From positions 1-64,000 of IMG/VR virus record IMGVR_UViG_3300046780_000088: a stretch of 64,000 nt of DNA; one strand, given 5' to 3'. The translations under genes and the position numbers were made by a program. Under the pieces are notes generated by a model. The model did no database searches. It saw only the letters and a list, made by a program, of their open reading frames with translations, and was not told the DNA's origin. The stretch is from a virus. Within the stretch, counting starts at the first letter, position 1. The number at the start of each line of letters is the position of its first letter. Positions 4,368 to 64,000 of the stretch are shown one piece after another.

Positions 4368-4443
4368 GGGGATATAGCTCAGTTGGTAGAGCAACTGCTT
4401 TGCACGCAGTAGGTCGTGGGTTCAACTCCCTCTGTCTCCACCA
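4368..4443 (+). tRNA. tRNA-Ala(TGC)
   Basis: GGGGATA/TGTCTCC acceptor stem, anticodon arm ACTGC-TTTGCAC-GCAGT, encoded CCA. Confidence 0.92.
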
Positions 4444-4550
4444 AGTTTTGTGGCCGGAACGGAACGTGGTAAGAGTGATCACACAAATCGAACCTTTCCG
4501 AAGGGTGTGACTTAAATAGCCTGTAGCTTGCCGCCACAATTTTTTATTTT

Positions 4551-4625
4551 GCGGGTGTGCCTAGACTGGAATGGTACTGATTTCCAATCAGTTATACGAG
4601 AGTTCGATTCTCTTCGCCCGCTCCA
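4551..4625 (+). tRNA. tRNA-Gly(TCC)
   Basis: GCGGGTG/CGCCCGC acceptor, anticodon arm ACTGA-TTTCCAA-TCAGT, GTTCGA T-loop, TCCA end. Confidence 0.88.
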
Positions 4626-4631
4626 TTCAAT

Positions 4632-4724
4632 GCGGAATGACTACATCGTGTCAATGACGACAACAACGGTTGGTGCACGCTGTGTTGCTCGACTCAAATC
4701 ATCGCGTGTGATGATTCCGCTCCA
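4632..4724 (+). ncRNA. tRNA-like RNA with Gly-type acceptor stem but non-canonical body
   Basis: GCGGAAT/ATTCCGC 7-bp stem plus T-CCA end, located inside the tRNA cluster; no TTCRA T-loop and no canonical 7-nt anticodon loop. Confidence 0.55.
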
Positions 4725-4734
4725 ATTTATTTTT

Positions 4735-4811
4735 GCCCTTGTAGCTCAGTCGGCAGAGCAAGTGCTTTGTAAGCACTAGGTCGAAGGTTCGAATCCATTC
4801 CTCGGGCACCA
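4735..4811 (+). tRNA. tRNA-Thr(TGT)
   Basis: Anticodon arm AGTGC-TTTGTAA-GCACT, GGTTCGAATCC T-arm, ACCA end. Confidence 0.88.
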
Positions 4812-4840
4812 TTTCTTTTTTACAGCATCGATTCGTGTTT

Positions 4841-4923
4841 GCCCTGATGGTGGAATTGATAGACACACCGGGCCAAGAACCCGGCGCGCAAGCGTGAAGG
4901 TTTGAATCCTTCTTGGGGCACCA
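4841..4923 (+). tRNA. tRNA-Leu(AAG), long variable arm, C33
   Basis: GGTGGAATTGATAGACAC D-arm, anticodon arm CCGGG-CCAAGAA-CCCGG, variable arm CGC-GCAA-GCG, ACCA end. Confidence 0.8.
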
Positions 4924-4934
4924 GTTATTTATAC

Positions 4935-5008
4935 GGTATTGTAGCTCAGGGGCAGAGCAGCGGGTCGATAACCCGCCGACGAAGGTTCGATTCCTTACAG
5001 TACCACCA
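4935..5008 (+). tRNA. tRNA-Ile(GAT), C33
   Basis: Anticodon arm GCGGG-TCGATAA-CCCGC, GGTTCGATTCC T-arm, ACCA end. Confidence 0.85.
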
Positions 5009-5768: not shown

Positions 5769-7670
5769 TCATTCAATCTCGCAAACGCCAGCGCTGCACG
5801 CAAGGTCGCGCACGTTGTCAGTCGTGTCGATTCCGGCTTCGTATACACCGATCTGATCCCAAGGAACCACAACCTGTTTCGTCATCCATTCCTCATAGGT
5901 CTTTTGATCTATCTCCTGATACGGTGCTTGCTTGTAAACGTGTTCGCTGTGCGGCAGGAATGAAACACCGCTCAGTTCATCGAAGTGTTCATACACCCAT
6001 GCGCCGACAGCAAGCCATTCATGCTCCCTGACATAGATCGTGATCGACGCTTTGTGTTCGCACCAGTGACGATTGTAGAGCAACATCAGTTCGAGCATTT
6101 CAATCGCGCTTCGGTCGTTGCGCGTCACACAATGATCAGGTGACTTCACCGGGAAGTAAAACACATCGGTCTTCTCCGGTTTTGTGACATCGTCTTCGAC
6201 GTAGCAACCGGCTTCGCGCATCAGCTTCGAAAGTGGATCGGCCTTGTCCGCGCGCACCGTGCGCAAGTAGTACGCCGAATGCCTAGCATGAATGCCGCTG
6301 GCTGAATCGACAAGCTGCGATACCGTACCAGAAGGCTTGACGCATGTTGTCGCCACTGAAGGATTCACGCCAAGCATCTTGGCGAGCTTCGCATTCGTTG
6401 CCACGACTTCGTTGCGCAAGCGTTCGAGCAGACGACCAAGTGACCCTTCGTAGTCTTCGTACGTCAACGGATTGTCCATGATGCCTGTGAGCGATACGCC
6501 AAGCAGCGCTTCTTCTTCGGTGTTGCGCTGCCATGCTTTGCCAAGATAACGGAACTTTGTGAGGGTTGACTGAAGCGTTCCAAGGATCGCCGCTCCACGC
6601 ACCTTGCGCATCAGATCAGCTTCGGTATCGGTTGCACGCACGACAACTTCAGAAAGGTTGCAAAACTGTTTGCTGCGAAGAATGATTTCTGAGCAAGGGT
6701 TAGTGCCGGGATCGCGGATCGTTCTGCGACCGCTCTTCTCTGCTTGCTTGATGCTGGCGACTCGACTGAACAGTCCACGCTCGCCGCTCTTCGATTCGTA
6801 CAGCGACAACCATTCTTTCATGAACGCGCCGATGTCAGGCTTCTCTGTGTACGCTACGCTGTTGTTGGCGAGCTTGCGATGTCCGTCAGTGTCATACCAT
6901 GCGCCTTGCTTCGCTCCACGCATCCGATCATCGGACAGGTTGCTTAGTGAGATAAGCGCCGAACGACGAACACCGCCGACAACGATCACGTCGGCGATCT
7001 TGCACACAAGGTCGTGACATTCGAGGCTTGTGAGCTTGCGCCCTGCCGCGTTTTGAAAGACATGGATGCAATACTCGAACAGATCAACCAGCGGTTCCGG
7101 GCCTGACGCTCTTCCACCCATCGTCTTCAATCTCGCTCCTGCCGGTCGTACTTTGGATATATCGTACTTGGGAATCTCACCGTGCCACAGATAATTCAGC
7201 ATGGCGTGCAACGCGCTCGACCATCCGATCTTCGAGTCGGCAACCACGACAACAGAATCGACGTGTTCGAATTCATCCGCCACTGCCGGAAGCTTGTTGA
7301 CGAACTGACGCTCGACACTGAACCCAACTCCTGTTCCACACATCAGCGTGTACATGATTTCATCGAACGCTGTTATCTCATCAATCTCGCGGTACGAACA
7401 ATTGAACCCGGCAACGTTGTCGCGTTCGAGTGCTGCACCGGCAGTCATCAGGCAACGCATCGACGGCATTATTTCAAGCTTCAGGATCGCTTCGCGCAAC
7501 TCTTCATAGTCAACGACATCAGGGTATCGAGCTTTGAAGAAATCGATGTAGCGTGCGACAGTTTCAACCCAAGTCTCACGGCGCTTCTGTTCAGGGTTCC
7601 ACCTTGCGTAGCGTGACAGGTGGATGAACGATTGGTAATCGGTTGGGAGTTTTATAGACTCGTTTTTCAT
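5769..7670 (-). CDS. nrdJ: Class II (B12-dependent) ribonucleotide reductase
   Basis: MPSMR, FNC, GTGVG, VGGVRRSA, TNPCSEI, FCNLSE and TCVKPSGTVSQL motifs; C-terminal ACSAGVCE; no NrdB gene nearby. Confidence 0.92.
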   Translation of the reverse strand: MKNESIKLPTDYQSFIHLSRYARWNPEQKRRETWVETVARYIDFFKARYPDVVDYEELREAILKLEIMPSMRCLMTAGAALERDNVAGFNCSYREIDEITAFDEIMYTLMCGTGVGFSVERQFVNKLPAVADEFEHVDSVVVVADSKIGWSSALHAMLNYLWHGEIPKYDISKVRPAGARLKTMGGRASGPEPLVDLFEYCIHVFQNAAGRKLTSLECHDLVCKIADVIVVGGVRRSALISLSNLSDDRMRGAKQGAWYDTDGHRKLANNSVAYTEKPDIGAFMKEWLSLYESKSGERGLFSRVASIKQAEKSGRRTIRDPGTNPCSEIILRSKQFCNLSEVVVRATDTEADLMRKVRGAAILGTLQSTLTKFRYLGKAWQRNTEEEALLGVSLTGIMDNPLTYEDYEGSLGRLLERLRNEVVATNAKLAKMLGVNPSVATTCVKPSGTVSQLVDSASGIHARHSAYYLRTVRADKADPLSKLMREAGCYVEDDVTKPEKTDVFYFPVKSPDHCVTRNDRSAIEMLELMLLYNRHWCEHKASITIYVREHEWLAVGAWVYEHFDELSGVSFLPHSEHVYKQAPYQEIDQKTYEEWMTKQVVVPWDQIGVYEAGIDTTDNVRDLACSAGVCEIE

Positions 7671-34257: not shown

Positions 34258-34331
34258 TGGCGGGACGTAAGGGATTCGAACCCATATCTGACGGATAGAC
34301 AATCCGTTGCATCCCGATCTGCCAACGCCCC
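34258..34331 (-). tRNA. tRNA-Asp(GTC)
   Basis: Anticodon arm ACGGA-TTGTCTA-TCCGT, GGTTCGAATCC T-arm, G73-CCA. Confidence 0.85.
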
Positions 34332-34409
34332 AAAATAAAATCGCTCGGTACAGGCATCACTGTATCTGGCCCCGAGCTTGCATCGTCTTTGTGACGATGG
34401 ATGCAGCGA

Positions 34410-34484
34410 TGGTAGCGGGTGTGCGATTCGAACGCACGATCTTCAGGTTATGGGCCTGACGAGTTACCACTTCTCCAACCCGCA
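34410..34484 (-). tRNA. tRNA-Met(CAT), initiator-like, C33
   Basis: 1:72 mismatch (U/U), anticodon arm TCAGG-CCCATAA-CCTGA, GTTCGAATC T-loop, ACCA. Confidence 0.82.
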
Positions 34485-34624
34485 TTCGATTCCTTCGGCG
34501 GTTAAATCCCCGGATCGGGGGTCCGCCGTCGCCGACCCAAGACGCTTTAGCGACTCGCGCCGGGGAGTCCATGTGTTGCAACACATTCGCTCCTAAGCTT
34601 TCTTCCGGTTCCGCACAGCACAGG

Positions 34625-34955
34625 TTATGTGCTTTCGGTTCTGTTGCCACGCTCACCGGATCGCGCCGCGTATTGTTGGACCGATTAGGCCGCGATACGC
34701 TGGTCGTACATTTCGTCATTCGCAGTTATGCGCTGGCTCAGTTATTACGCGACTGTGCGCGTGTTGTCATCGTCTGCTATCTCGCCACGTCGAAACCTGT
34801 GCGACCCCGCCGCGCGACACTTTGTTACCCGCATATTATTGCGCCCAACATTCACGGATGAACTATGGGAAAATGCCGCTCGGTGGAGTCGTCGGGAATT
34901 GAACCCGAGTCCGCAACGCCTTCACTTCCGAGTCTGCGGTCTTAATCACCGCCAC
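34625..34955 (-). ncRNA. ssrA: Circularly permuted two-piece tmRNA; tag (A)ANDEMYDQRIAA
   Basis: Acceptor piece with T-arm GGGTTCAATTCCC and 3' CGACTCC-A ending ~34884, then a ~73-nt intervening segment, then the coding piece starting GGGGTCG..GGTTTCGACG at 34808; G3-U70 pair; ATAACT before the resume codon; tag ORF 34723-34685; outer ends approximate. Confidence 0.88.
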
Positions 34956-34975
34956 AACAATTCTTCGAACGACAA

Positions 34976-50586: not shown

Positions 50587-51658
50587 TGAGGAAAAATAGA
50601 ATGGTACATAAACACGAAGGTCAGACCAAGGTTCAACCGCCGAACGATTCGGCCTATCCGGGTCCGTATTTGCAAGTCGCCGACTTGAAAGTCGATGATG
50701 CGAAGTATATTCAAAAGCGTGCTGGTTCAGTTTTCAATTCCATCGTCAAGGGCGATCAAGCGGCGAAGAATGATCTGATCAATGCAGCGATGCAAGGCGC
50801 ATACCGCGATGCTTCGCCGGGTGATACGCAACCGCAAGTGATTGCTCCGAACTTCGATGATTCGCAATACGCCAATCAAAGTGTGATCGATGTTGTTGCG
50901 GCATTCAACAAATTCAGACATCCGAATCGGTGATTTCACCAGCGACAAGTATTGTCATCGTCGGAGTGAGTGCGCAGACAGCGTTGCTCGCTCTTTGGGC
51001 GTTGGGCATCGAGCGATGGCCTTGGTTCATCAATCTGCTCCCGCTTGAAGCACTGATCGTATTCGTGCTTGGGCTGAGTGTGTATCTGGTATCAACGAAA
51101 TCGAATCCATTTCAGTGAAGGAAAACATCATGGCAAAATACGGAAGAGTACCGCAAGAAAAAGATGCAGTCGCACCGAAGGGCGCGTTCGGACAACCGAA
51201 TGGCGATGGATCGCACAACGACAAGCCTGATTTCGTTGGACAGGTTGTATCGAGTGACGCGAGGGCCACACACCGCGTTGTGAAGTCGGTTGGCAATCAG
51301 CGCGAAGCGGTTGCGCATTTCGCGCCGGTTCCGCAAGATGCGTCGGCATTCGAAGCGGCGGTAGAAGCTGCGAAGGTTTTGTCGAAGGAACAACCGGGTG
51401 CGACGTTCGATGTCGAAGGTCCGAAACCTGACGATAAGGCAGAAACGTCGTTCGTCGTGGAGACACCAAAACCGAAGGTTGAAGCGGCAAAGACTGAGAC
51501 AACTTCTGCGAAGACGTGAGCGAAGCGCAATATTCATTCACTGACCTTGTGATCGCGTTCTGGATGGGCGCGATCTTTTTGTATATGCTGCTGATCATAA
51601 TGGCCGGTATCCAAGTGATGAAAAACAAACCGCCGAACGAACCGCCGACAGGCACGAC

Positions 51659-52162
51659 ATGAAGATTAAGAAGACGCGAAGCGACAAAGGCGTGCATAAA
51701 CCTGCATCCGAAAAGAGTTTGCAAGCGCTGGTGAAGTACCGAGCGGAACATCCGGGCGAGAAAATTGGTGGTATACCGTTGGTAGTGTTCGATGCAAAGC
51801 AGTTGCAGACGATCACGAAGTTGCGCGCAGTAAGCACCCCGATTAGGGCTATTGCTCGCGCGATGGGCGTGTCGAACATGACGTTCAATGCGATGCGCGA
51901 ACGGCAACCGGAAGTTCAGGACGCACTCGATGCTGGCGACGACATGCTGTACAACAGGATCATTTCAGGTCGCACAGGATTGCTCAACGAGAAGAGTTTC
52001 GTTGCGAAGATTTTCTTAGCGAAGGCGTTGTTAGGACTACGCGATGGCGAATCAGTGCCGGGTAATACCGGGCCGCGCATAGTCATCAACATGCCCGGAG
52101 CGCAACCGCTGTCGAAGGTGATCGAGGGACAGGTGATCAGGGAAGATGACGACGAAAAATAA
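51659..52162 (+). CDS. Probable terminase small subunit / HTH protein
   Basis: IARAMGVS..TF HTH, IFLAKA.LG.RD pattern; upstream of TerL. Confidence 0.6.
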   Translation: MKIKKTRSDKGVHKPASEKSLQALVKYRAEHPGEKIGGIPLVVFDAKQLQTITKLRAVSTPIRAIARAMGVSNMTFNAMRERQPEVQDALDAGDDMLYNRIISGRTGLLNEKSFVAKIFLAKALLGLRDGESVPGNTGPRIVINMPGAQPLSKVIEGQVIREDDDEK

Positions 52163-52506
52163 ATTCAGTCCGCGCGTCGGCGATCCGAATTTCAACCCGC
52201 GTGCGTACTATGAGCGTGTGTATCTCAAAGACATCGAGCGTGACATCGACATGAAGGACAAGCTCAAGAAGGATGCAGCATGGCGGAAGATGATCAGGGA
52301 CAAACACAATGAAACTGCTTGACTATCCCGGACTGACGATTGAAAAGTTCGATGACGGTACAGTTACCGTCAGTTTGTTCGATCAGTATGTGGAATTTAC
52401 GAACGAGGAATTTTTGTTCATGATGAAAGATTTGAATGGGAACATTGCACATGATGCGCGCATGGAGCGCGAGCGACCATCGCCGGTTGCCGTAGCTTGA
52501 CGCCAT

Positions 52507-52584
52507 CTGTGCGTAGCTCAGTCAGGTCAGAGTACCCGGCCCGGAACCGGGAAGTCGAAGGTTCGAATCCTTCCGTACAGACCA
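52507..52584 (+). tRNA. tRNA-Pro(CGG), C33
   Basis: CTGTGCG/CGTACAG acceptor, anticodon arm CCCGG-CCCGGAA-CCGGG, GGTTCGAATCC T-arm, ACCA. Confidence 0.85.
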
Positions 52585-53872
52585 TTTCCAAGAGGAAATT
52601 ATCATGAATACAACCGTTGTAACACTGAATTATTTCTTCGTACTTGCTGCTACCGTTGTGATGTGGGTTGCGGCATTCAATCCTACCGTCGATGCAAACC
52701 ATAAATTTTCGCTCGCAATAAATTGGATGTGTCTTAGCTTTGCACTTCTTCTGACTGCGTGGTTCTTCAAGTAAGTGAAGAACTGCACTTACGGTTGTAC
52801 GGGAAAGTGTTTCGATAATCATTCGTTCGATTGTTCGGTTTGTGGTAGCAAATCTTCGGCATGTTACGGTATTGATAACGTATGGTATTGCGTGAAGTGC
52901 TGGCTTGAGAGAGTTCTATGATCGAGTACGTTCTGGTTATGGTGGTTGGCAGTCAACTGGCGTTTGCTACCGACGTTCGTACAGATGAAATGCTCATCTT
53001 TACGAAGCTTGCTGTATGTGAGCAAGCGAAAGTGAGGATGGAGAAAGTTGCTGCGAAAGTGATGAAGGAAAATCCGCAGTTCGACAAAAGCTTGACGCCT
53101 GTGATTGAATGCATTGATCGGCAGAAGACACCTTGGGCCGATGAACCAACAGAAAAGAAAACGCCGATGCTGAACGAAGAACAATTCTTTCAGTACGGCA
53201 ACAAGCAAGGTGATGCATAATGGTTCGCGCATTTCAAGATACTGGTAACGGTACAGCAGCACCGGCAACTTTCACTGGACAAGTGAAAGCAAATGGTGAA
53301 TCTCCAACCGACAACAAGACGTATTCTGCAACGTATCGCGTGACTCGATATTGGGGTGTGGCATTCATTCAAGCAGAAGCGGTAGCGTACTTTCATACCA
53401 AAGCAGACGCCGATGCTGCTGCTGCAACATTGAATGCAACGGCACATGGTGAAGTATATCGTTCTGAAGTTTCTCAATGAGGAAATTGATATGTCAATGA
53501 ATGGTCCGAAGTCCGCGAACAAGAAACAAACATTCGATATTCAACCAAAACTGATTCCTGATGGATATGCACAATTACCAGCAGCATTGGCGGTTACACC
53601 GCCCGGTGTTCCAGTAAGTGTTCCGTTGGTTCCAAATGCAATGCCTGTGTATCCTTGTAAGAATTGATGTAAGTGAGAGGAATGCGTAACATCGCTCTTT
53701 GGGCGTCGAACGAATCACCAAATTCGCAATCCGCGCCAATGGTTTCGATAAACCAAAAAGACGATTGTGTTGTGTTCACAGTGCGTGATGCCTTCGACAC
53801 AACAGCGATTGCCTTCATGCCGATAAAAGACTTCGTGAAGTTTGCTGCGACATTTATTCAAGAGGCTAGATC

Positions 53873-54316
53873 ATGACAGGCTGGACTGATGCAGCAAGAG
53901 CCGCGAGTCTTGCAGTTCGTGAGGCTGAAGCGAAGAATCACAATGCAAATGGAAAAAGAGCAGGGCAGGAAACACATCATCAAGCAATTCGTGAAGTATC
54001 AAAATGGTATCACGGCGACATTAATGCGATAAGAGGACAATCAATAAATGCAAAGAGTTTGATGACTCCAAGTTGGGCAGTAACGAATTTAAAGTCAGCT
54101 TATAATTATGCAACTCAAGCATCATACAAAAAATCTTTAATTCCTGAACGCAAAGCGATATTCTCAGTTAGACCGATAACAAAAAATTCAACTCGTATGT
54201 CGGAAGGTCGCGGTCGCGGTAGTATGTCAAAAGAAGTTATTGCTTCTCCATATCGGATGAGTATTGTGTCAAGATTACCGCAAGCTCGCGGCCATGCATC
54301 AAGAGGAAAATATTGA
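53873..54316 (+). CDS. WTD-leader protein 1: leader + putative Arr-like ADP-ribosyltransferase
   Basis: Shared leader; cargo WYHG...SWAVTNLKSAYNYA...IFSVRP...ASPYRMSIV. Confidence 0.6.
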   Translation: MTGWTDAARAASLAVREAEAKNHNANGKRAGQETHHQAIREVSKWYHGDINAIRGQSINAKSLMTPSWAVTNLKSAYNYATQASYKKSLIPERKAIFSVRPITKNSTRMSEGRGRGSMSKEVIASPYRMSIVSRLPQARGHASRGKY

Positions 54317-54489
54317 TGACAGGCTGGACTGATGACGCGCGGAAGTCGTCGCTCGATGCACGTCGGAACAAGAAGACAGGAAAAAAGAAGACGTACGTTC
54401 GCAATCGCGTAGCGAAAACTCCGCGCGAAAAGGCAATCGATAAATTTGGTGAAGCCTATGTCGAAACTTTCATGGATGAACTGAAATGA
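54316..54489 (+). CDS. WTD-leader protein 2 (57 aa, basic; absent from the ORF track)
   Basis: MTGWTDDARKSSLDARRNKKTGKKKTYVRNRVAKTPREKAIDKFGEAYVETFMDELK; TGATG/ATGA-coupled to both neighbours. Confidence 0.8.
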   Translation: MTGWTDDARKSSLDARRNKKTGKKKTYVRNRVAKTPREKAIDKFGEAYVETFMDELK

Positions 54490-54878
54490 CAGGATGGACT
54501 GACCAAGCACGCGAGGCGTCGATTGCTGCACGCCACAATGCCAATGGCAAAGCACCCGGTCAGGAAGCGCACCATGCCGCGTTGAAAGCGGCGCAGACGC
54601 GCAGAGCGAATGTCGCGCACAACGATCACCGTCATGCTGTGAAAGCTGCTGAAGATGCGTTGCTTCGTGCACGTTCGCTTCATGAAGTTCCGAAGTGGGC
54701 GAACCTGAAAGCTGTGAGCAACTTCTATCTTGCCGCTGCACAATCGCATGGTCGATACCAAGTCGATCACATCGTACCGTTGAACGGTCGCAAAGTGATG
54801 GGTTTGCATGTGGAGAATAATATGCAACTGTTGACTCCGTGGCAGAATAAATCAAAAAGCAACAGGTTCAAATCATGA
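54486..54878 (+). CDS. WTD-leader protein 3: leader + HNH endonuclease
   Basis: Shared leader; PKWA...VDHIVPL.G..V.GLHV.NNMQLL...N..K.N. Confidence 0.85.
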   Translation: MTGWTDQAREASIAARHNANGKAPGQEAHHAALKAAQTRRANVAHNDHRHAVKAAEDALLRARSLHEVPKWANLKAVSNFYLAAAQSHGRYQVDHIVPLNGRKVMGLHVENNMQLLTPWQNKSKSNRFKS

Positions 54879-55195
54879 CAGGCTGGACTGACGCTGCGCG
54901 TGAAGCGAGCTTGGCAGTTCGTGAAGCCGAAGCGAAAGATCATAACGCCAACGGGAAAGCTCCCGGACAGGAAACGCACCATGCCGCATTGAAGGGCGCA
55001 GTGACGCCGACATGGGCAACACATACTGAAGCTGCACGAAAGATGGCAGCGTTGCAATCGACAAGACCGCATTCAATTGAAAAACGTTTCGGTAGTAACG
55101 GGCCAAATCCTGATCAATTGACAGCATATAAAGCAGAAGTGAAGTCTTGGAATTCTGCATATCGAAATGCGAAGAAGGGATTGATGCCTAGATGA
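54875..55195 (+). CDS. WTD-leader protein 4: leader + unknown helical cargo
   Basis: Shared leader; overlaps the terL start (ATGA-type coupling). Confidence 0.75.
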   Translation: MTGWTDAAREASLAVREAEAKDHNANGKAPGQETHHAALKGAVTPTWATHTEAARKMAALQSTRPHSIEKRFGSNGPNPDQLTAYKAEVKSWNSAYRNAKKGLMPR

Positions 55196-56631
55196 GCCAA
55201 GAAGTAATAGCACGCACACCAGAAAAAGTAGTAGGAAGACCAAGACTCGATACACCGCCGCCCGGAACCGATCTGTTGACGATGTCGAAATTTCAGAAGC
55301 GCGTGCTTCGCGTTCCTGAAGAAGTCGATTTGTTTCTTGGTGGTGGTCGTGGTGGCGCGAAGTCATACACGATGGTCTTGCTCGCTCTTCGGCACGTCGA
55401 ACAGTATGGTCCAAAGGCACGAATTCTTTACATCCGGCAAACACATGCGGGGTGCGCAGACTTCGAATCTTTGTGTCTCGAAGTTTTTTCGTTGTTGTAT
55501 GGTCGCACCGTAAAATACAATTCTACGAAGGGACTATTCAAGTTCCCGAACGGCGCGACTCTCGAAATCAATCAGCTTGAAACAGTATCAGACTATACGA
55601 AATTTCAGGGGCGCTCATTTACGCTGCTGATGATTGACGAAGCAGGGCATTATGCGATGCCTGATATGTTGGACAAGCTTCGTTCGAACTTGCGTGGACC
55701 GGCAGACATGCCTACACGCATTGTGATCGCAGCAAATCCGGGTGATGCAGGACACCATTGGTTAGCTTCACGGTACGTTTTTCGTGCGGCACCGTGGACT
55801 ATCTTCAAGGAACCGAACTCGCAACGTTTCTTTTTGTATGCGCCTTCAACGTTCCTAGACAATCCATTCATCAACCAAGCTGAATACAAGGCTCAACTTG
55901 TATCGTCTTGTCCAAGCGATCCTGAACTGTTGCGCGCGTGGCTTGATGGTGATTGGGCGATTGCTCGCGGTGCGTACTTCGGTGGATGTCTTGAAGAATC
56001 GCGTAACGCGGTAGACTTCTGGAATTACAAGATACCTGCTGGTTGGGATTGGTGGCTTGCGCACGATTATGGTTCGACCGCTCCGTCAGTAACGTACATC
56101 GTTGCGAAGTCACCGGGTGGCGAAGGACCGGATGGAAAATGGTATCCGCGCGATTCACTTGTACTGGTCGATGAATTTGCAACGAACGAAGCTGGACATC
56201 TGAACAAGGGACTTGGTTGGATGGTTCCGCGACTCGCAGAAGAAATCATCAAGCATTTGTGTATGCCGTGGAATGTTGCCGCAACTGGTGTCGCTGATGA
56301 TGCTTGCTTTGCCAAAGGTGGACATTCTCGCGGTTCGATTGCTGATGAGTTTGCACGATGTGGATTGATCTTTGTTCCTGCCAAGAAGGGTGATCGTCTT
56401 TCAGGCTTGACAACGTTGAAGCGTTTGTTAGGCGATGCAGGACAGATGGATGTACCCGGTTTGTATATCTCGCGTTCGTGTTCGTATTTTTGGGCTACCG
56501 TTCCATACTTGGCGCGCGATCCTCGTAAGATGGAAGATTTGGATTCAAAGGGACCGGATCACGCTGCTGATGCAGCACGGTACGGTGTATTGCGCGAAGA
56601 GAGAAGCGCAACAATGAAGGCGATGTTCTGA
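55192..56631 (+). CDS. terL: Terminase large subunit
   Basis: GGGRGGAKS Walker A, FQG, IDEA, ANPG, LRAWLDGDW, HDYG, DHAADAARY. Confidence 0.93.
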   Translation: MSQEVIARTPEKVVGRPRLDTPPPGTDLLTMSKFQKRVLRVPEEVDLFLGGGRGGAKSYTMVLLALRHVEQYGPKARILYIRQTHAGCADFESLCLEVFSLLYGRTVKYNSTKGLFKFPNGATLEINQLETVSDYTKFQGRSFTLLMIDEAGHYAMPDMLDKLRSNLRGPADMPTRIVIAANPGDAGHHWLASRYVFRAAPWTIFKEPNSQRFFLYAPSTFLDNPFINQAEYKAQLVSSCPSDPELLRAWLDGDWAIARGAYFGGCLEESRNAVDFWNYKIPAGWDWWLAHDYGSTAPSVTYIVAKSPGGEGPDGKWYPRDSLVLVDEFATNEAGHLNKGLGWMVPRLAEEIIKHLCMPWNVAATGVADDACFAKGGHSRGSIADEFARCGLIFVPAKKGDRLSGLTTLKRLLGDAGQMDVPGLYISRSCSYFWATVPYLARDPRKMEDLDSKGPDHAADAARYGVLREERSATMKAMF

Positions 56632-57077
56632 AAGGAAAACCAATGACAAATTTGACGGTTGTAAATCCGAATGAACTGAATCCTGATACATCACCGCCGC
56701 CAGTTGTGATAGGTGAAGCAAGCGAATCGCCGGATGATTCTGATGCTGATGATGTTGTTGATGTGCCGCAAGGCTCTAAGGTGTAAATGAATGTCTATGA
56801 CCTTAGATCGGTTCAAAACTGAACCACACAAAATCTATTCGTCAGGTTGGTTTGTATTCTGCTTAGTGATTATAGCAGCTTTGGTTTTGGAATTGCTGCA
56901 TCAACAAACAATAATTCTCGATCAAACAAAGATCGATCAAGAACTCCAAACGATAATCAACAATGAAGAAAATATAATTGCTCACCAAGGTCAGTATGAT
57001 CAGATAATCAAGATGCTTCTTTCAAACCAAGAAAACATCATTAAGAAGCTCGATGACCACAACACCGGAAAATCGAA

Positions 57078-57602
57078 ATGATGACAGCTACTACTACACA
57101 ACAGAGACAACGTAAAAAAGACGCACGAAAAGTAATCACCACTGCACAGACTACAGCGAAGATGTTGAAGAGCAATGCAGATGCAGTTGCTTCGGCGACA
57201 GCAAATGTATTGAAGAGTAACGCCAAGCTTGTTTCTGATGCTTTGGAAGACACGGCAAAAAATACAGCAGATATTGTTTCAAAAGCAATTGAAACTGCTA
57301 ACCATAAAAATGAAGAAATATTGCGACAACGATCTGATGAAATTGTTCTTAAAACAGAAGCGCATTTTGACAAGGCTTCAGACCGAATCGATTCATTGGA
57401 AGATAGAATTGATGGAGTAGAAAAGAAGGTTCAGGACAGAATTGATAAGGTTGAAAAGAAGGTTGATGAAGGAAATGAAGATACGAAGAAGGTTTTGGCA
57501 ATAGTTAGTGCAGGAAAAATTGGTGGCAAATTCATGGGTTGGCTTGCCGCGCTGATTGCTTCTATTGCTGTTGCATGGTCGTATCTTATTCATGGAAAAT
57601 AA
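57078..57602 (+). CDS. Coiled-coil protein with C-terminal TM
   Basis: Heptad repeats followed by a hydrophobic C-terminal anchor. Confidence 0.55.
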   Translation: MMTATTTQQRQRKKDARKVITTAQTTAKMLKSNADAVASATANVLKSNAKLVSDALEDTAKNTADIVSKAIETANHKNEEILRQRSDEIVLKTEAHFDKASDRIDSLEDRIDGVEKKVQDRIDKVEKKVDEGNEDTKKVLAIVSAGKIGGKFMGWLAALIASIAVAWSYLIHGK

Positions 57603-57816
57603 ATTTGGAGTGTGAGCAAAATGTCATCGACTCGCCCACCGAAAACTCTCGATTACGATGCACAAGAAGTTAGCATGTTGAGAGATTTGTATACCAAGAT
57701 GGCAAAGAATAATGAAATGGATCAGGATAGCGAAGGCTTCGTCACCGTCGAACAAGTTTTCGACGAATTTGCGCGAGTGCGCGATTTCTACAAAATGAAG
57801 CGAAGGAAACATTAAA

Positions 57817-58224
57817 ATGACAGGATGGACAGACGAAGCGAGGGCCGCATCGCTCGCAGTGCGTGAGGCTGAAGCAAAAGACCACAACGCAAACGGCAAA
57901 GCACCGGGACAAGAAACACATCATCAAGCAATTAAGGCGGCGAGTAATTTAACTCGTCAGCATTTCGTTGCTGCCGCGAATCAGTTGCGCGAATCTGGTG
58001 CAAGCGCTGAAGCTGTTTCGCGCGCTGCTAATGCATTCGCTATGACGAATCCTAATTTTGATCGTGGTCGTTTTGTTGCTGCCGCTACAAAGGGACTGAC
58101 GAAGGGACTTGATATTCGCTCGCAATCAAACAAAGGATTCGCAAAAGCTTCGCGTGTTGCAGCTAACGTGATGAAAAATTATTCGAGCGGCAGTCCCTAT
58201 TTGACCCCTTCTAGGAGTCGATAA
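57817..58224 (+). CDS. WTD-leader protein 5: leader + 'TRxHF...NPNFDRxRF' phage domain
   Basis: Shared leader; LTRQHFVAAA...FAMTNPNFDRGRFVAAA. Confidence 0.75.
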   Translation: MTGWTDEARAASLAVREAEAKDHNANGKAPGQETHHQAIKAASNLTRQHFVAAANQLRESGASAEAVSRAANAFAMTNPNFDRGRFVAAATKGLTKGLDIRSQSNKGFAKASRVAANVMKNYSSGSPYLTPSRSR

Positions 58225-58225
58225 C

Positions 58226-58786
58226 ATGACCGGCTGGACTGACGAAGCACGACAAGCATCACTCGATGCACGGCGCGGCAATCCAAAGGATCATAATGCC
58301 AATGGTGCTGTGAGGGGGCAAGAAACTCATCAAGCAGCGGCGCGAGTATTTTCGCGCAACAATTTACCGAAGCTTATGCGCCAATCAAATTGGTCGATTC
58401 TTTCTGCCAATCGTGGTGATGCAGTATCATCGACCAAGAACACGATGCATCAAACACAACTTGCAAACGATCTTCGTAGACAAGGGGCATCATTCATCAA
58501 GGTAGAAGGACATTATGGTGGCAAGCCTGAAATTTCGTATGCCGTAACTGGAATTTCTGCGAGAGCAGCATACGCACTTGGTGCTAAATACAAACAAGAT
58601 TCTATTTTGACCAATCGTGGTCTGATTTATACGACAGGCGCGAAAGCTCGCGCTGGCGTTCGTACACCATCTACAGGAAGAATGGCAGTCGGAAAGTCCG
58701 CAACCGGAGATTTCTATTCGCGTATTCCGTCAACAGGCGCGCGTTTCTCTGCCGGTTTGAATTTCGACAAATACAAGACAAGGTAA
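58226..58786 (+). CDS. WTD-leader protein 6: leader + putative S-adenosylmethionine lyase (T3 SAMase-like)
   Basis: Shared leader; ILSANRG....KN......L...L........GHY....E.S......LG.KY.QDSIL compared with T3 VSAFRS...N...GCY...E...EQDCVL. Confidence 0.7.
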   Translation: MTGWTDEARQASLDARRGNPKDHNANGAVRGQETHQAAARVFSRNNLPKLMRQSNWSILSANRGDAVSSTKNTMHQTQLANDLRRQGASFIKVEGHYGGKPEISYAVTGISARAAYALGAKYKQDSILTNRGLIYTTGAKARAGVRTPSTGRMAVGKSATGDFYSRIPSTGARFSAGLNFDKYKTR

Positions 58787-58792
58787 TAGCCT

Positions 58793-60358
58793 ATGTACGG
58801 TGATACGAATCCCTCTCCCGCGCCAGCTATTGCGCGTGCGGCAGTTGCAGCATTGCTTGGTGGCGGCGGAAAAAATCCTGTAGGGATTCCGACTGCGCGT
58901 TACACCGAACTTGCCGCAGAGCGTTTGTTGCCCCGTACATTGATGGGCGGCACCGAATCGATGCGTGCTGCCGGAACATTGTTCCTACCGAAACATCCTG
59001 CCGAAACACAAGCTTCGTACGACTCTCGTATCAATGCAACGTTCTTGTATGGCGGTTATGCTGAAACTGTTTTCCGCATGGCAGCTAAGTTCTTCGAAGA
59101 ACCGATTGCAATGAAAGATGATGTACCGATCAAGATGCAGCAACTTGCATTGAACATCGATGGTCAGGGTCGTGCATTGACTCCATTCACAATGGACTTG
59201 GTGAAAGAAGCAATGGTCGATGGGATAGCATTCATTCTTGTTGATCACCCTAAAGTAGCACCAGATTCTACGCAAGCAGATGTGATAAAAGCTGGATTGC
59301 GTCCGTATTGGATTCTTGTTAAAGCAGATGATGTCATTGGTTGGCAGACAACTGCTGACTCTGGTGCGCAACTTCTTACGCAAGTCCGCATCAAGGAAAC
59401 TGTTGTTGTCCCTGATGGATTGTTTGGCGAGAAAATTGAGAAGCGCGTTCGTGTTTTGTTTCCCGGACACTTCCAAGTTTACACACAGATTGTAAACTCG
59501 CGTGGAGAATCAGATTGGATATTATCTGATTCTGGTGATACATCGTTCGATGAAATTCCTTTGATCCCTTTCTACACCAATCGTTGTGGATTCATGGAAG
59601 GTATGCCGCCGCTGAAGGTTCTGGCGGAAATGAATCAAGAACATTGGGTATCGTCTAGTGAACAACGTCGTGCGTTGACGTTCTTGCGTTTCGCAATGCT
59701 TTGTGCAATTGGTGTTGATGGTAAGACATCGACACTTGAAGTTGGCCCTGATCGAGTGTTGTACGTTCCTCTCGGTGGCGATGCAAAGTACGTTGAACAT
59801 AGTGGTAAGGGAATTGAATCTGGTCAAGCTGATTTGGATTCGATAGAGAAGCGCATGACTAGCGCTGGAATGAAGTTGAGAATTGAGAATGCAGGACAAG
59901 TTTCTGCTACAGCGAGTGCAGTTGATAGCGATGATGTGAATGCAGTATTGAAAGCAATTGCCAAAGAACTTGAAGACGTGCTTGCGCAAGCAGCACAATT
60001 CACTGTTGAATTGCTTGGGTTGCCGGATGGCGGTTCATACGATGTGTTTGATGATTTCGCTGATAGCGGCGCACCGGGCACAATAACTGAATTCAATGCA
60101 ATGGCGGTCGCAGGAAATATCAGCAAGCAGACGTTGTGGGAAGAATTGCGCCGTCGCCATATGCTCAGTGAGGATTTCGATCCCGAAACAGAACAAGCAA
60201 ATCTTGATTCAGAATTGCAGTCGTACATGAAATCAGTAGCACAACAGTCGGCATTGGTTGCTAATGCAGTGCCGCCATCACCCACTTCTGGCGCTGCGCC
60301 AACACCTGTTGCACCAACACCGCCTAAGAAGTCGAAATTGAATATCAAACAAAATTGA
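58793..60358 (+). CDS. Portal protein (DUF4055-like)
   Basis: LMGGT..MRAAG..FLPK...E....Y..R, NIDGQG, ILVDHP, RPYW, PPL..LA..N..H; position after TerL. Confidence 0.88.
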   Translation: MYGDTNPSPAPAIARAAVAALLGGGGKNPVGIPTARYTELAAERLLPRTLMGGTESMRAAGTLFLPKHPAETQASYDSRINATFLYGGYAETVFRMAAKFFEEPIAMKDDVPIKMQQLALNIDGQGRALTPFTMDLVKEAMVDGIAFILVDHPKVAPDSTQADVIKAGLRPYWILVKADDVIGWQTTADSGAQLLTQVRIKETVVVPDGLFGEKIEKRVRVLFPGHFQVYTQIVNSRGESDWILSDSGDTSFDEIPLIPFYTNRCGFMEGMPPLKVLAEMNQEHWVSSSEQRRALTFLRFAMLCAIGVDGKTSTLEVGPDRVLYVPLGGDAKYVEHSGKGIESGQADLDSIEKRMTSAGMKLRIENAGQVSATASAVDSDDVNAVLKAIAKELEDVLAQAAQFTVELLGLPDGGSYDVFDDFADSGAPGTITEFNAMAVAGNISKQTLWEELRRRHMLSEDFDPETEQANLDSELQSYMKSVAQQSALVANAVPPSPTSGAAPTPVAPTPPKKSKLNIKQN

Positions 60359-60372
60359 AGGAGTCTTGAAAA

Positions 60373-61065
60373 ATGATGGACAAATTAAATGCAACAGACG
60401 GTGTTGGTGCAGCAGTACATCGCGGGGCCGCATTGTCTGAATCGATGAATGCAATTGGTCGCTATGATGTGACTTGTGTTCGACCGCTGAAAGAATATGA
60501 AGGTGAATATCTTCGCTTGCTCGGTATTGCGATGGCATGGGACAAGATCGGTAAGGAACGACTTGTTGAACGCTTCCTTGAACAAGCTAGAGAATTGCCG
60601 CATCAGATTGTGTGGGAAGATACAATTCACAACACGGTCTGTACTGCCGGGAAGAATCTTGCTCTCGATACTTTTCTTGCTGGCTCTTCGTACACAGTTG
60701 TTGGTCCGTATATTGGTTTGATCAGTTCAACTTCGTATTCGGCAATTGCCGCTGGCGATACGCAAGCATCGCACTCTGGTTGGCTTGAAGCTGGAAATGC
60801 AAACGCTCCGACATATACATCGCCTCGTAAGACTGCCGCATGGAGTGCTGCTTCTGCTGGTTCGAAAGCGTTGTCTTCGAATGCCTCGTTCGCTATTACT
60901 GGATCGGGAACCGTCAAAGGTGCGTTTATGATTTATGGTTCAGGTGCATTGACTACCATTGACAACACTGCCGGAACGCTTCTGTCTGCTGGTCTGTTCA
61001 CTGGTGGCGATAAAGTTGTTGCCAACCTTGACACGCTTAACGTCAGCTATTCGCTGGCAATCTAA
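60373..61065 (+). CDS. Virion structural protein
   Basis: N.V.T.GKN..LD, YIGLI, F.I...GTV.GAF...GTL.SA..F pattern. Confidence 0.6.
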   Translation: MMDKLNATDGVGAAVHRGAALSESMNAIGRYDVTCVRPLKEYEGEYLRLLGIAMAWDKIGKERLVERFLEQARELPHQIVWEDTIHNTVCTAGKNLALDTFLAGSSYTVVGPYIGLISSTSYSAIAAGDTQASHSGWLEAGNANAPTYTSPRKTAAWSAASAGSKALSSNASFAITGSGTVKGAFMIYGSGALTTIDNTAGTLLSAGLFTGGDKVVANLDTLNVSYSLAI

Positions 61066-61079
61066 TAGGAGATTTGGTT

Positions 61080-61265
61080 ATGTTGAAAAAGGGATCGAAG
61101 GTAAAACAGATTGTCCAAGCTGCGATTGAAGGTGAAGTTGTGCGCGTCGAACGTGATGGCGATGGCGAACCAACAGGGAATTATCTTGTTGAATGGGAAG
61201 CTGATGGTGTGACTCATTCCAAATATTTCTCTGAAAAAGAAGTTGAGGAAGTTGCAAATGGATAA
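61080..61265 (+). CDS. Small SH3-like hypothetical protein
   Basis: ORF with RBS AGGAG. Confidence 0.5.
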   Translation: MLKKGSKVKQIVQAAIEGEVVRVERDGDGEPTGNYLVEWEADGVTHSKYFSEKEVEEVANG

Positions 61266-61500
61266 CGCCACGTTGATTGCCGACATTACTACGTCTTTGC
61301 AAGATGCTTGCACTTTAGCAAACGTTCAATCGCCGATGCAGCAACTTGTGACAGCAAACGCTTCACTGCAAACTGCATTAACTCATGCTACACAATTACA
61401 GACTGCTCTTGATGCTGAGACAGCAGATGATGTTGCAAAAGCAGCGCAGTTAGCGACAGCGAAACAGAAGGCACAGGATTTGGTTGCTTCACTTAGTTGA
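61258..61500 (+). CDS. Coiled-coil hypothetical protein
   Basis: Ala/Gln/Leu heptads. Confidence 0.5.
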   Translation: MDNATLIADITTSLQDACTLANVQSPMQQLVTANASLQTALTHATQLQTALDAETADDVAKAAQLATAKQKAQDLVASLS

Positions 61501-61512
61501 AAGGATTTGTTC

Positions 61513-63540
61513 ATGCCAACTGTTACATACGACACAATCGTAACTGGTCTTCAACGCGCTATAGTAGACGCGCAAACTTTGGCTGGACAAGTAATTACTC
61601 CCCCGCCGCCCCCGCCGCCTGTTAATGGAACCCCGATTGGGACGTACTATCCGCCAAACTTTACTGAGTCTGGTTTTGGTGATGCTGCTGGACCGCCATC
61701 ATGCGGTGTAACAGCTAGAATTGGTCAACAGTTGAAACCGCCTTATCCGGCATTTCTTCCGGGATTTTATTTAGGTGATGGTGATGCTCCGGTGCGTTGG
61801 ACGACAATCAATAAACCTGATTGGTATGATACCGCTGGAACATTGTATGGTTCTGTTCCATACGCTAAGACTACGGTTACTGCTGCGCCAGTTCATTTAA
61901 CTGAATTTTCGGTTGATCTTGATGCAACTTCATTAGTTAAGGAATTTGCAAGCAAACCGAATTATGGATTTGTAGTTGCTGCTGACAGTGCAAACTCTAA
62001 CACAATCAAATGGCGTTCTTCACATGCATCAGTAAATTTGCCGGTGCTTATTGTTGATGGTGTGACGATTCAATGTGAACGTTCTACATGGTTTTCGACT
62101 AGCAGTGAGACATCGTTTGCTGGCAATCCTGAAATGAGAACGGCACATAATACCGATTTTGCTTTGCTGCGATTCGATCTTAGAACTATCGACGTATCGA
62201 AAGTCCAAAAAGCAACACTTCGTATGTGGACGTTTGATCAATATGGTAACGTGACAATCGGATTATATCGTTTGTGGAATCCGGCTGATCCTGCGAGCGT
62301 TGCACCTGTGCAACTTGGCATTGCTGCACAATATCCGCTTGATGTCGGAATTGAAACTAATTCTGCTGTTGCGTTTGTTCAAGCCGTCAAGGATAAAAAT
62401 TATTCTTCCCTTTGGGGTTCTAGCTCCACTGGCGACAATTCAACATTCTTTACACCGGCAGACTTGGCAGCGCTTGGTTTACCGCCTATGCCGGGGGCTA
62501 CTGGAAACGCTATTGCTGGTGTCTTCAAAAAAGGTGGCCCGCAAAGTACCTTAGAAGCTCACTGGTCGCCGTGGCGTAGGGGTCAGGGTACAACCGGACC
62601 TTGGGAAACCGGGCAGCAGCTACGACCGCCTGCACCGATGGAAGAGGCATATTTCCGATATTACCTTATGATCCACGGCAACCCGGAACCTGATGGTGGT
62701 AAGTTGTTTGGATTCGATGGTCGATACCGCGATTGGGGAACACCGCCTACACCTGAAAGTCTTGTTGGTGCTGGTCGTGGAAATTCAGCTTCATTTTGTG
62801 ATTTGCTTACTGGATATTCTGCGCGTGGAAATCACAATGCTGAACCTGTAGCTGGATCGCCTTGTAAGGGTCGTATTGGTGTTGGTATGAGCGATTGTTA
62901 CATACCGGACCAAACAGGACCATATGGACCGGCATTAACAGTTGATCTAAATTATCTTGGTCAATTGAAAAAGGATGTGCCGCACTGTATTGAAATGCAT
63001 TTGAAGTTGAATACAGTGACACATCCTGAAGAAAAACAGCAACTCATTACTTCTATTACTGCTGTAAATGGTGTTGCTACAGCTACTCTTGCACAACCAT
63101 GTACGTCGCCATTGTACGTTACCGGAGCAACTATGGCTGTTGGTGGTGCTGGTGGATATTCTTCACTTGCATACAATGGTGAATTCAAAATCACTGTTAT
63201 CAGTCCGACTCAATTTACATATCCAGTTCCAACAACTGTTGCTCCTGTTGCTGCACTAGGTTCTAGTCCAAGCTATCCGTTGCGATTCACTTGCTGTTTG
63301 AGTACTGGAAACTTCGACGGTATTTTGGAATGGTTCATCAATGGTCGTTTGGCAATGCGTTATTCCGGTATGCGTTTTCGTGGTTCAGCATGGCTTCCTG
63401 ATGGCAAATCGAAATATGGAATTGACAATTTCTGGTTTGCATTCTTCCAAGGTGGCCCAAACAATCCGACAGAAGACTACTGGATGTTTGCCAGTGGCAT
63501 TGTGATCGCCGATAAATACATTGGACCTATGGTTCATTGA
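61513..63540 (+). CDS. Carbohydrate-active virion protein (DNRLRE-like module + polysaccharide-lyase-like beta domain)
   Basis: LLRFDL...V.KATLR (DNRLRE/CBM96-like); EAYFRYY, GGKLFG, IEMHLKLNT, DG.LEWFING, FFQGG (PL14-like). Confidence 0.55.
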   Translation: MPTVTYDTIVTGLQRAIVDAQTLAGQVITPPPPPPPVNGTPIGTYYPPNFTESGFGDAAGPPSCGVTARIGQQLKPPYPAFLPGFYLGDGDAPVRWTTINKPDWYDTAGTLYGSVPYAKTTVTAAPVHLTEFSVDLDATSLVKEFASKPNYGFVVAADSANSNTIKWRSSHASVNLPVLIVDGVTIQCERSTWFSTSSETSFAGNPEMRTAHNTDFALLRFDLRTIDVSKVQKATLRMWTFDQYGNVTIGLYRLWNPADPASVAPVQLGIAAQYPLDVGIETNSAVAFVQAVKDKNYSSLWGSSSTGDNSTFFTPADLAALGLPPMPGATGNAIAGVFKKGGPQSTLEAHWSPWRRGQGTTGPWETGQQLRPPAPMEEAYFRYYLMIHGNPEPDGGKLFGFDGRYRDWGTPPTPESLVGAGRGNSASFCDLLTGYSARGNHNAEPVAGSPCKGRIGVGMSDCYIPDQTGPYGPALTVDLNYLGQLKKDVPHCIEMHLKLNTVTHPEEKQQLITSITAVNGVATATLAQPCTSPLYVTGATMAVGGAGGYSSLAYNGEFKITVISPTQFTYPVPTTVAPVAALGSSPSYPLRFTCCLSTGNFDGILEWFINGRLAMRYSGMRFRGSAWLPDGKSKYGIDNFWFAFFQGGPNNPTEDYWMFASGIVIADKYIGPMVH

Positions 63541-63555
63541 AAGTGAATACATAAA

Positions 63556-63912
63556 ATGGCAGCTACTAAAAACAAGCGGACTCTTCTTGCTTCAACGAGT
63601 ATTGCCGCAGCAACACCGACTGATGGTACTGAAATTGATCTTTCAACGAAGTATGGTGGCGTTCTTACTGTAAAATTGACGAATGGTGGAACTGGTCCTA
63701 CGGTTCCGATCAACGCTTATGTATACATTGGTGGCGCTACAACTGAAAAGAAATTGTTCGCCAAGCTTCTTGGTGATTCAGTAAACAGTAGCGTTAATGA
63801 ATATGCAGTTGATATTCCTGCTGGCACAATGTTTTTGAACATCACATTTAAGGACAATACTGCACAAGCGGTGACTTGTGAGGCATTCTTGCAAGAACTG
63901 ACTACGATTTAA
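63556..63912 (+). CDS. Hypothetical structural protein
   Basis: KLTNGGTGPT pattern in the structural module. Confidence 0.5.
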   Translation: MAATKNKRTLLASTSIAAATPTDGTEIDLSTKYGGVLTVKLTNGGTGPTVPINAYVYIGGATTEKKLFAKLLGDSVNSSVNEYAVDIPAGTMFLNITFKDNTAQAVTCEAFLQELTTI

Positions 63913-64000
63913 GCTATGACTGTTTTCAATCGAGTTCGGTCGGCTCAGATTCCGCGTTACCCGCTGAAGATTGATCGCTCGACTGAAATCGGAAAATCTC

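Follow-up and report, generated by a model that had tools for sequence, protein, structure and literature searches.

Six genes in the first 64,000 nucleotides (hereafter, the window) of the soil virus record IMGVR_UViG_3300046780_000088 encode proteins that share an N-terminal peptide, the leader, fused to unrelated C-terminal parts; the genes lie on both sides of the large terminase gene (terL) and directly before the portal gene. The leader is a repeated, modular peptide under purifying selection, and its first half recurs in head-module proteins of distant prophages. Judged from these features, the leader may be a portable head-module tag, which most likely draws its six bearers to the head during assembly or to the packaging/portal vertex, where they would act, or would be enclosed and ejected; this is the interpretation preferred here, with a probability somewhat short of an even chance.

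Structure and position of the leader genes

The open reading frame (ORF) listing of the window showed that MTGWTD opens six ORFs on the + strand, at 53873, 54316, 54486, 54875, 57817 and 58226. The same six had been described in an earlier reading of the letters (the sequence-only reading), and all were present, including the 57-amino-acid (aa) product of the ORF at 54316; when the complete 86,782-base record was searched at the protein level, exactly six leader copies were found. The leader takes the form MTGWTDxARxAS[LI]xxR, followed by a variable stretch and then HNANG..GQE.H, which gives approximately 38 residues common to five of the six proteins, as the sequence-only reading had it. The exception was g54316 (54316–54489, + strand; 57 aa from its ATG), which consists of the first leader half only (MTGWTDDARKSSLDARR, residues 1 to approximately 18) and a short basic tail; the leader query matched it at E = 0.008 over residues 1–18. 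Fourteen positions were invariant among 14 leader proteins (M1, T2, G3, W4, T5, D6, R9, A11, S12, R16, G27, G31, E33 and H35).

Beyond the leader, the proteins diverged as completely as had been claimed. Identity between paralogues was 55–88% over the leader (69% on average), while the parts beyond approximately residue 42 were only 12–24% identical in a forced global alignment, and are unrelated. The other genes, all on the + strand, were g53873 (53873–54316; 147 aa), with the full leader (residues 1 to approximately 38) and a C-terminal part that belongs to no family; g54486 (54486–54878; 130 aa), in which the leader lacks six middle residues and precedes a putative HNH-type nuclease part; g54875 (54875–55195; 106 aa), with the full leader and a part without a family; g57817 (57817–58224; 135 aa), with the full leader and a small helical part; and g58226 (58226–58786; 186 aa), with the full leader and a DUF3293 domain.

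The first four genes were confirmed to be joined by overlapping stop and start codons. The junction of g53873 and g54316 is TGATG at 54314–54318, a 1-nt overlap, and ATGA overlaps occur at 54486, 54875 and 55192, such that g54486 is overlapped on both sides. Since the last of these is the start of terL, translational coupling spans four leader genes and continues into terL, beyond what had been noted before. The position of the genes around terL and directly before the portal gene was also verified, with both neighbours identified by Pfam and PHROG. The product of terL (55192–56631, + strand) matched Terminase_3 (3.8e-10) and Terminase_6N (4.8e-5), as well as phrog_979 and phrog_2 (both 1e-23); the portal protein (58793–60358, + strand) matched DUF4055 (6.8e-28) and phrog_145, a portal family (6.4e-106). 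There is a 1-nt gap between g57817 and g58226, and the portal gene begins 7 nt after g58226. Relatives of terL at 55–63% identity (L001–L003) were found in compact terS-terL(-79 aa)-portal modules that had neither leader genes nor the motif, and the leader genes are therefore insertions into a conserved packaging module.

The gap between terL and g57817 (56791–57602) has an odd content for its place, since it holds two small ORFs with hydrophobic, membrane-like segments (identified by eye). One (96 aa) has its hydrophobic segment near the N-terminus; the other (174 aa) is coiled-coil-like with a C-terminal hydrophobic segment, and matched phrog_18362 (3.3e-7) and phrog_6701 (4.7e-5), two PHROGs whose function is not known.

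Purifying selection on the leader peptide

The DNA pattern ATGACAGGNTGGAC matched at the six leader starts with no or one mismatch, and at one other position with two mismatches; 1.33 matches were expected, and none of 100 shuffles reached seven. Back-translated TGWTD recovered the same six sites and one further match with a single mismatch, against an expectation of 0.30; again, no shuffle of 100 equalled the count. Five of the starts have an identical ATGACAGG(C/A)TGGAC, from which the sixth differs by one base. These approximately 14 bases at the start were the only identical ones in an alignment of leader DNA. When the Nei-Gojobori method was applied to the leader codons of all ten pairs, pS was 0.65–0.89, i.e., saturated, while dN was 0.09–0.37 and omega did not exceed 0.16. 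The combination of saturated synonymous sites and low omega therefore showed that the leader peptide is maintained by selection. The leaders are old copies held by purifying selection on the peptide, and not the products of recent duplication.

Relatives of the leader and turnover of leader genes

The leader belongs to no family in Pfam, PHROGs or NCBIfam, and no related sequence was found in the Protein Data Bank (PDB), where a profile of the motif produced only chance-level matches to ClpC (E = 0.4–2.4). The sequence-only reading had known of no description of this leader; likewise, motif strings led to no paper and no description was found in passages of reviews (the supplements of Iyer et al. 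2017 might list it), and the leader appears to be undescribed.

Among 5.8 billion proteins, a word-based search returned ten leader matches, comprising five proteins of the window and five from small JGI contigs. The latter were orthologues of four window proteins plus P0009, which carries a C-terminal part absent from the window. Two of the JGI proteins, P0005 and P0172 (relatives of g57817 and g58226), both came from a 2520-nt contig, and are probably neighbours there as they are in the window. A search of 1.84 billion cluster representatives with a hidden Markov model (HMM) of the leader, which the sequence-only reading had proposed as a check, gave 43 matches at E ≤ 0.001. Ten of these were small proteins that open with the leader; the remaining 33 had the first leader half only, in 1–4 matched stretches per protein that were mostly internal and sometimes near the N-terminus, and it was this first half that proved to be linked to head-module proteins (see below).

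Several other searches returned little. Cultured phage records held no match to window DNA from 53000–60400, nor any match to the leader or motif string in protein mode with low-complexity filtering; when IMG/VR and metagenome contigs were scanned for the leader, only pattern matches came up, none of which was confirmed; a single-protein scan with P0013 found nothing; and a scan with P0045 found one distant MuF locus, without the motif.

A second, more diverged type of leader, MTGWTDEARQASI[ED]SRAGG.KPG[DE]ETHH, was present on relatives of the HNH (P0020), DUF3293 (P0036) and g57817 (P0017) C-terminal parts, and on P0027. Window leaders were 55–61% identical to second-type leaders on orthologous C-terminal parts, and those C-terminal parts were 39–60% identical; hence the leaders of each type appear to have changed in concert. 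This pattern would be explained better by co-adaptation of the leaders to a single common partner than by recent gene conversion, because synonymous sites among the window leaders are saturated.

Further evidence of variation came from a 231-nt contig in soil run X2, of which 114 nt match the end of the HNH gene with 6 differences and 101 nt match the start of terL with 2 differences. Position 54872 is linked there to 55201 across 16 letters of different sequence, and the 328 nt containing g54875 are missing. Because of this joint, X2 must contain a relative that lacks g54875 and has the HNH gene directly before terL. Since g54875 is missing here and P0009 has a C-terminal part new to the window, the repertoire of leader genes varies among close relatives. 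A second joint in X2, from 53661 to 57817, had only 37 letters on one side, and hints weakly that the genes of a relative may be ordered differently.

The near-identical DNA at the six starts, together with the differing gene content of relatives, could suggest that cassettes are exchanged by recombination at the shared 5' DNA, with the peptide a by-product; the sequence-only reading had raised such exchange as a second role for the shared start. The proposal was weakened here. Only approximately 14 nt are common and the remaining leader DNA is saturated with synonymous changes, so that there is little basis for exchange through shared DNA; moreover, the X2 deletion ends at gene borders, and not within two leader repeats. 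This explanation is considered extremely improbable.

The first leader half in prophage head modules

The first leader half, GWTDxARxASLxxR, recurs 1–6 times per protein in prophages. A Pfam scan took in 30 of the 33 first-half proteins (P0043, P0046 and P0047 were left out). Nine of the 30 had an N-terminal Mu-like prophage protein I domain (Mu-like_Pro, a prohead protease), one (P0045) had Phage_Mu_F and two (P0039 and P0042) had ADP-ribosyltransferase (ART) domains; 18 had no Pfam family above the cut-off, and NCBIfam contained nothing for the prophage motif proteins. By eye, a Cys knuckle of the MuF type follows in the protease proteins, succeeded by long linkers that hold the motif, and the motif copies in prophage proteins are set apart by low-complexity linkers. 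In P0042, the motif is followed by a ParB-like DGHHR region (by eye) and then by the ART domain, while in P0039 the motif flanks an ART insert. The motif is not confined to internal positions: 15 of 38 proteins had it among their first 40 residues (18 instances), and a 281-aa ORF between the portal and protease genes of L015 opens with it.

A regular expression counted 66 internal instances in 32 proteins, with the consensus L-A-N-x-G-W-[TS]-D-[EA]-A-R-A-A-[SA]-L-A-V-R-[RQ]-A-K-A-A-A-R; the expression itself fixes W, R and R, and the resulting logo is partly circular. Asn occurred at position -3 in 43 of the 66 instances and Gly at -1 in 55. The window leaders begin exactly at the start of the internal motif, with Met in place of the frequent Asn. 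It would appear, from this comparison, that the first leader half doubles as an internal header of prophage head-module proteins and as a stand-alone leader, which is new.

A scan with the motif alignment, applied to IMG/VR and to one genome per species, led to 14 loci, the named ones being metagenome-assembled genomes of Lentisphaeraceae, Victivallales, Verrucomicrobia and Terrimicrobiaceae. The order of genes at these loci was terL (T4-type), Portal_Mu, a protein combining the Mu protease with the motif, more motif proteins, a 165-aa protein and a major capsid protein (phrog_1005). Using head proteins of L009 and L011 as tblastn queries, at least one head-module homologue was found in 12 of the 14 loci. 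In ten loci this was terL, portal, protease or major capsid protein, while L016 and L019 had only a homologue of the 165-aa protein; L010 and L012, which are contigs of 2–4 kb, had no head-module homologue. Linkage to head genes, also proposed earlier as a check on leader homologues, was thus observed for the first-half motif. Motif proteins were often encoded in tandem, for instance in L011 (1829 aa with five motifs, 539 aa and at least 244 aa), L016 (1415 aa with six motifs, and 543 aa) and L007 (1213, 1210 and 325 aa).

Two further features of these loci were recorded. The prophage motif often precedes a proline-rich linker and a beta-rich repeat, ...NG..VR[LI]GS[ST]K.L..LPDG... (L011 8413–10029, L019 1071–2481, P0012), to which no Pfam or PHROG family corresponded. 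In L016 (Lentisphaeraceae), a PD-(D/E)XK nuclease (6394–7269; PDDEXK_13, 4.8e-56; REase-ARP, 1.3e-24) comes just after the motif-bearing polyproteins.

The residues around the motif could be read as a processing signal, in which the fused Mu-like protease cuts before the motif, at the Asn three positions before Trp, and the window genes are 'pre-cut' equivalents with a vestigial header. The frequencies of Asn at -3 and Gly at -1 are consistent with this, as is the fact that window leaders start at that point with Met for Asn; in addition, 9 of the 30 proteins carry protease domain and motif on one polypeptide. However, there was no match to Mu-like_Pro, Peptidase_S78 or CLP_protease at E ≤ 1 in the 86.8-kb record (which is an estimated 84% complete, and where the T4 gp21 family was not searched), yet selection on the leader is strong, and a vestige would decay. 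Furthermore, cleavage is a prediction from a logo that is itself partly circular. This account is highly improbable.

The C-terminal parts

The sequence-only reading had described the recognisable C-terminal parts as anti-host or anti-defence enzymes, i.e., SAM lyase, ART and HNH, and these identifications fared differently. The HNH assignment of g54486 was supported only by PHROG profiles (phrog_1035, endonuclease VII, 6e-7; phrog_589, HNH, 0.0025; and phrog_26577, of function not known, 5.4e-15) and a DH..P..N...N motif was seen by eye in the C-terminal part, but Pfam produced no family at E ≤ 0.1. For g58226, the family that passed was not SAM lyase. Residues 64–127 matched DUF3293 (PF11697; 5.5e-9, 37 bits against a gathering cut-off of 25), while the match to S-AdoMet_lyase (PF23780; 1e-4, 22.7 bits) was below the cut-off of 28; P0172, which is 87% identical to g58226, has precomputed matches to both families on record. 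A search with the C-terminal part of g58226 found only four close relatives (P0006, P0172 and P0036 being the named relatives), an AF2 model from a 3-row alignment was too poor for fold comparison (mean pLDDT 38), and a literature search for DUF3293 found no paper.

The proposed ART identity of g53873 was unsupported, since this protein matched nothing in Pfam, PHROG, NCBIfam or PDB sequences, and its Atlas language-model scores to ART-type clusters (0.86–0.87) were below the lead level of 0.9. A PDB sequence search with g58226 was equally empty. The C-terminal part of g57817, whose relatives are P0005 and P0017, resembled 59–64-aa viral hypothetical proteins in Atlas structure models (TM 0.76–0.86, normalized by the hit), which is weak evidence that it may be a short helical part like stand-alone viral mini-proteins.

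It might be argued that the proteins are simply a paralogous family, in which the N-terminal domain is itself functional (against one host or defence target, for example) and the C-termini have diverged or been swapped, with no loading into the head. Strong purifying selection on the N-terminal 38 aa, the confinement of the family to a narrow phage lineage and the invariant G..G.ETH core, which includes His35 and could be a small functional site, all favour this. Nevertheless, the C-termini come from unrelated families (HNH and DUF3293), and therefore represent fusion rather than divergence; distant prophages have the first half inside their head-module proteins; and a late packaging operon would be a poor fit for an intracellular, early-acting factor. 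A low probability is assigned to this explanation.

The position of the HNH gene raises another alternative. HNH proteins encoded next to terminase genes serve as cofactors in packaging, as in HK97 gp74; g54486 resembles such proteins in being HNH-type and just upstream of terL, and differs in carrying the shared leader. Accordingly, the leader might dock accessory factors on the packaging motor, at the terminase/portal vertex, during DNA maturation, without enclosure or injection; the HNH protein would be a cofactor for cos cleavage and the others would modulate packaging. Four leader genes coupled into terL and two that abut the portal gene are consistent with this, and the HNH part is both backed by PHROGs and encoded directly before terL in the X2 relative. 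Conversely, no packaging role is known for DUF3293 or for small helical parts, the terL relatives lack leader genes, and the prophage motif is found in protease or scaffold-position proteins and in ART fusions, which act inside the head and not at the motor. On balance, a role confined to the motor is unlikely.

The phage and its head genes

The record derives from soil. One sequencing run, probably the source of the record, covers the whole stretch, and small parts of it occur in two further runs from soil or rhizosphere; no RNA run was listed among the runs that hold the stretch. Its major capsid protein is P22-like (phrog_283, Pfam P22_CoatProtein) and there is a separate scaffold (phrog_206). 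The capsid protein family is very large, and the named members seen come from Proteobacteria. The portal is of the DUF4055 type, and the MuF protein is short (275 aa; genome positions 68905–69732) and without an extension. Portal and MuF genes are spaced by approximately 8.5 kb of large ORFs (window 60373–64000, genome 63916–68640), one of which has a disaggregatase-related/CBM96-like repeat; the others matched no family above threshold, with only a marginal match to phrog_14032 (function not known) for a 413-aa ORF.

Elsewhere in the window, ARAGORN identified a permuted tmRNA (tag ANDEMYDQRIAA) at 34594–34973 and eight tRNA genes (including those at 4368–5008, 34258–34484 and 52507–52584), of which tRNA-Pro(CGG) sits between a putative small terminase gene (51659–52162) and the leader genes. 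In a scan of 51000–61000, promoter-like sites were fewer than in shuffled sequences and terminator-like sites were at chance level.

Proposed role of the leader

The preferred interpretation of the leader as a head-module tag draws, on the sequence side, on its rarity and modularity, the presence of the motif in head-module proteins, the late-operon position of the genes, their coupling to terL and their cassette-like turnover. The modular address label envisaged in the sequence-only reading stood in so far as a selected, modular peptide is carried by unrelated C-terminal parts in a late packaging/head operon; what was weakened is the notion that proteins are loaded and then clipped.

It is proposed that the first 20 or so residues (TGWTDxARxAS[LI]xxR) may be a copy of a short helical 'module header', which in other phages would front the modules of head-internal proteins, namely prohead protease/scaffold-like extensions, MuF and ART toxin fusions. 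In the present phage, the header would have been extended by a lineage-specific loop and a second helix (HNANG..GQETHH.A), and placed at the N-terminus of six small, separately translated proteins that are made together with terminase and portal. As a docking peptide, the leader might then bring its bearer to the assembling procapsid or portal vertex, and the docked proteins would either work at the vertex, or be enclosed and exit with the DNA. Clipping of the T4 kind is unlikely because no prohead protease of the three families was found; since the head is also P22-like with a separate scaffold, the leader would probably be kept on the protein, except for the removal of Met1 to expose TGWTD. 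Methionine aminopeptidase removes Met1 before Thr, and we infer that the N-terminus so created would be identical to the one that polyproteins would acquire if cut after the conserved Asn. More generally, GWTDxARxASLxxR could be a protease-independent header that marks head-interior proteins in phages of distant host phyla, carried either on protease/MuF polyproteins or on separate tagged genes; this extension is possible, if doubtful.

A number of observations weigh against the leader being a head tag. The scaffold and MuF of the phage itself are without the motif, and the leader genes must be dispensable for head assembly because the terL relatives do without them. When all ORFs of at least 40 aa from the window genome were compared with the 14 prophage loci by tblastn, no meaningful similarity was found beyond the motif, the only other rows being three short, weak matches (E = 4e-5 to 5e-4). 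Portal, capsid and terminase families thus differ between the two phage groups, and since their head proteins share nothing detectable, a common head-protein receptor would need recognition at the level of the fold. Window leaders have not retained RRAKAAAR, the basic tail that accompanies the motif in prophages. P0017, P0020, P0027 and P0036 were assigned to one lineage on the basis of the leader type itself. An HNH gene beside terL has an ordinary explanation that involves no cargo; packaging cofactors are normally encoded there, so that one or more of the 'cargos' may work at the motor instead of being injected as effectors. The association of the six proteins with the virion is something that we infer from sequence. 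A co-fold of leader residues 1–42 (14-row alignment) with the major capsid protein (61-row alignment), run without controls, scored 0.00, and this is no evidence either way.

Alternatively, the partner of the leader may be DNA, a host factor or the leader itself. The last is part of a proposal in which the motif is a self-associating or nucleic acid-binding 'sticker', such that the multi-copy prophage proteins form a scaffold-like network, and the six window proteins form a hetero-complex or bind DNA. The 1–6 copies per prophage protein with low-complexity linkers between them would suit such a network, as would the basic, Ala-rich tail that accompanies the prophage motif, and the dissimilarity of head proteins between the two phage groups favours a universal partner or the motif itself. 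However, the stretch equivalent to the basic tail is acidic or neutral in most window leaders, and because the window scaffold lacks the motif, single-copy stickers would be left without a multivalent hub. This proposal is judged improbable.

Comparison with known systems

The T4 internal proteins IPI-III and Alt, to which the leader had been compared in the sequence-only reading, have an N-terminal capsid targeting sequence that takes them to the scaffolding core, from where they are injected with the DNA, and some are anti-restriction proteins, as described in passages of PMC3012670. The two cases are alike in that a shared N-terminal peptide is found on otherwise unrelated proteins of a single phage (leaders 55–88%, remainders 12–24% identical), so the logic of the analogy and the pattern of its gene family held. 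They are unlike in sequence, where there is no similarity, and in length, the leader being approximately 38 aa and the T4 capsid targeting sequence approximately 10 aa. Removal of the peptide by a prohead protease has no counterpart here, where no such protease was found and a scaffold accompanies a P22-like coat, and this part of the analogy is weakened. Moreover, the present genes flank terL and portal, and the motif is also internal in the polyproteins of other phages.

Effector domains such as ART on head-morphogenesis proteins are thought to be packaged and injected, and MuF has been hypothesised to be a capsid-targeting part, according to passages in Iyer et al. 2017 (PMC5512222) and in an account of Bxa (PMC11699363); those passages on MuF-fused or polyvalent effectors make no mention of the motif. 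Some motif-bearing prophage proteins are of this kind (P0039, P0042 and P0045; the 1829-aa protein of L011 and the 1415-aa protein of L016), and the window genes occupy a comparable head-morphogenesis neighbourhood. By contrast, the window proteins are only 57–186 aa in length, with one C-terminal part each and in separate genes, next to an unextended MuF of 275 aa.

In P22 gp8, in the helices of the 80alpha scaffold and SaPI1 CpmB, and in encapsulin cargo-loading peptides, a short helix carried by different proteins docks cargo or scaffold inside an HK97-fold shell. These helices are usually C-terminal, unlike the N-terminal leader, whose binding to a capsid protein would be hypothetical.

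Implications

Proteins that are carried in the phage head and co-injected give the phage a first strike against the defences of its host. Except in T4 and a few giant phages, we know of no sequence rule by which injected proteins can be recognised. If the leader is indeed a head tag, one that needs no maturation protease and serves polyproteins as well as stand-alone genes, injected proteomes would become predictable from sequence in metagenomes, and there would be a handle on how scaffold-type heads select their cargo; a tag of 20–40 residues might also serve to load foreign proteins into capsids of the P22-like and Mu-like kinds. If the tag docks at the packaging motor instead, it would still define a new interaction module of the terminase-portal machinery.

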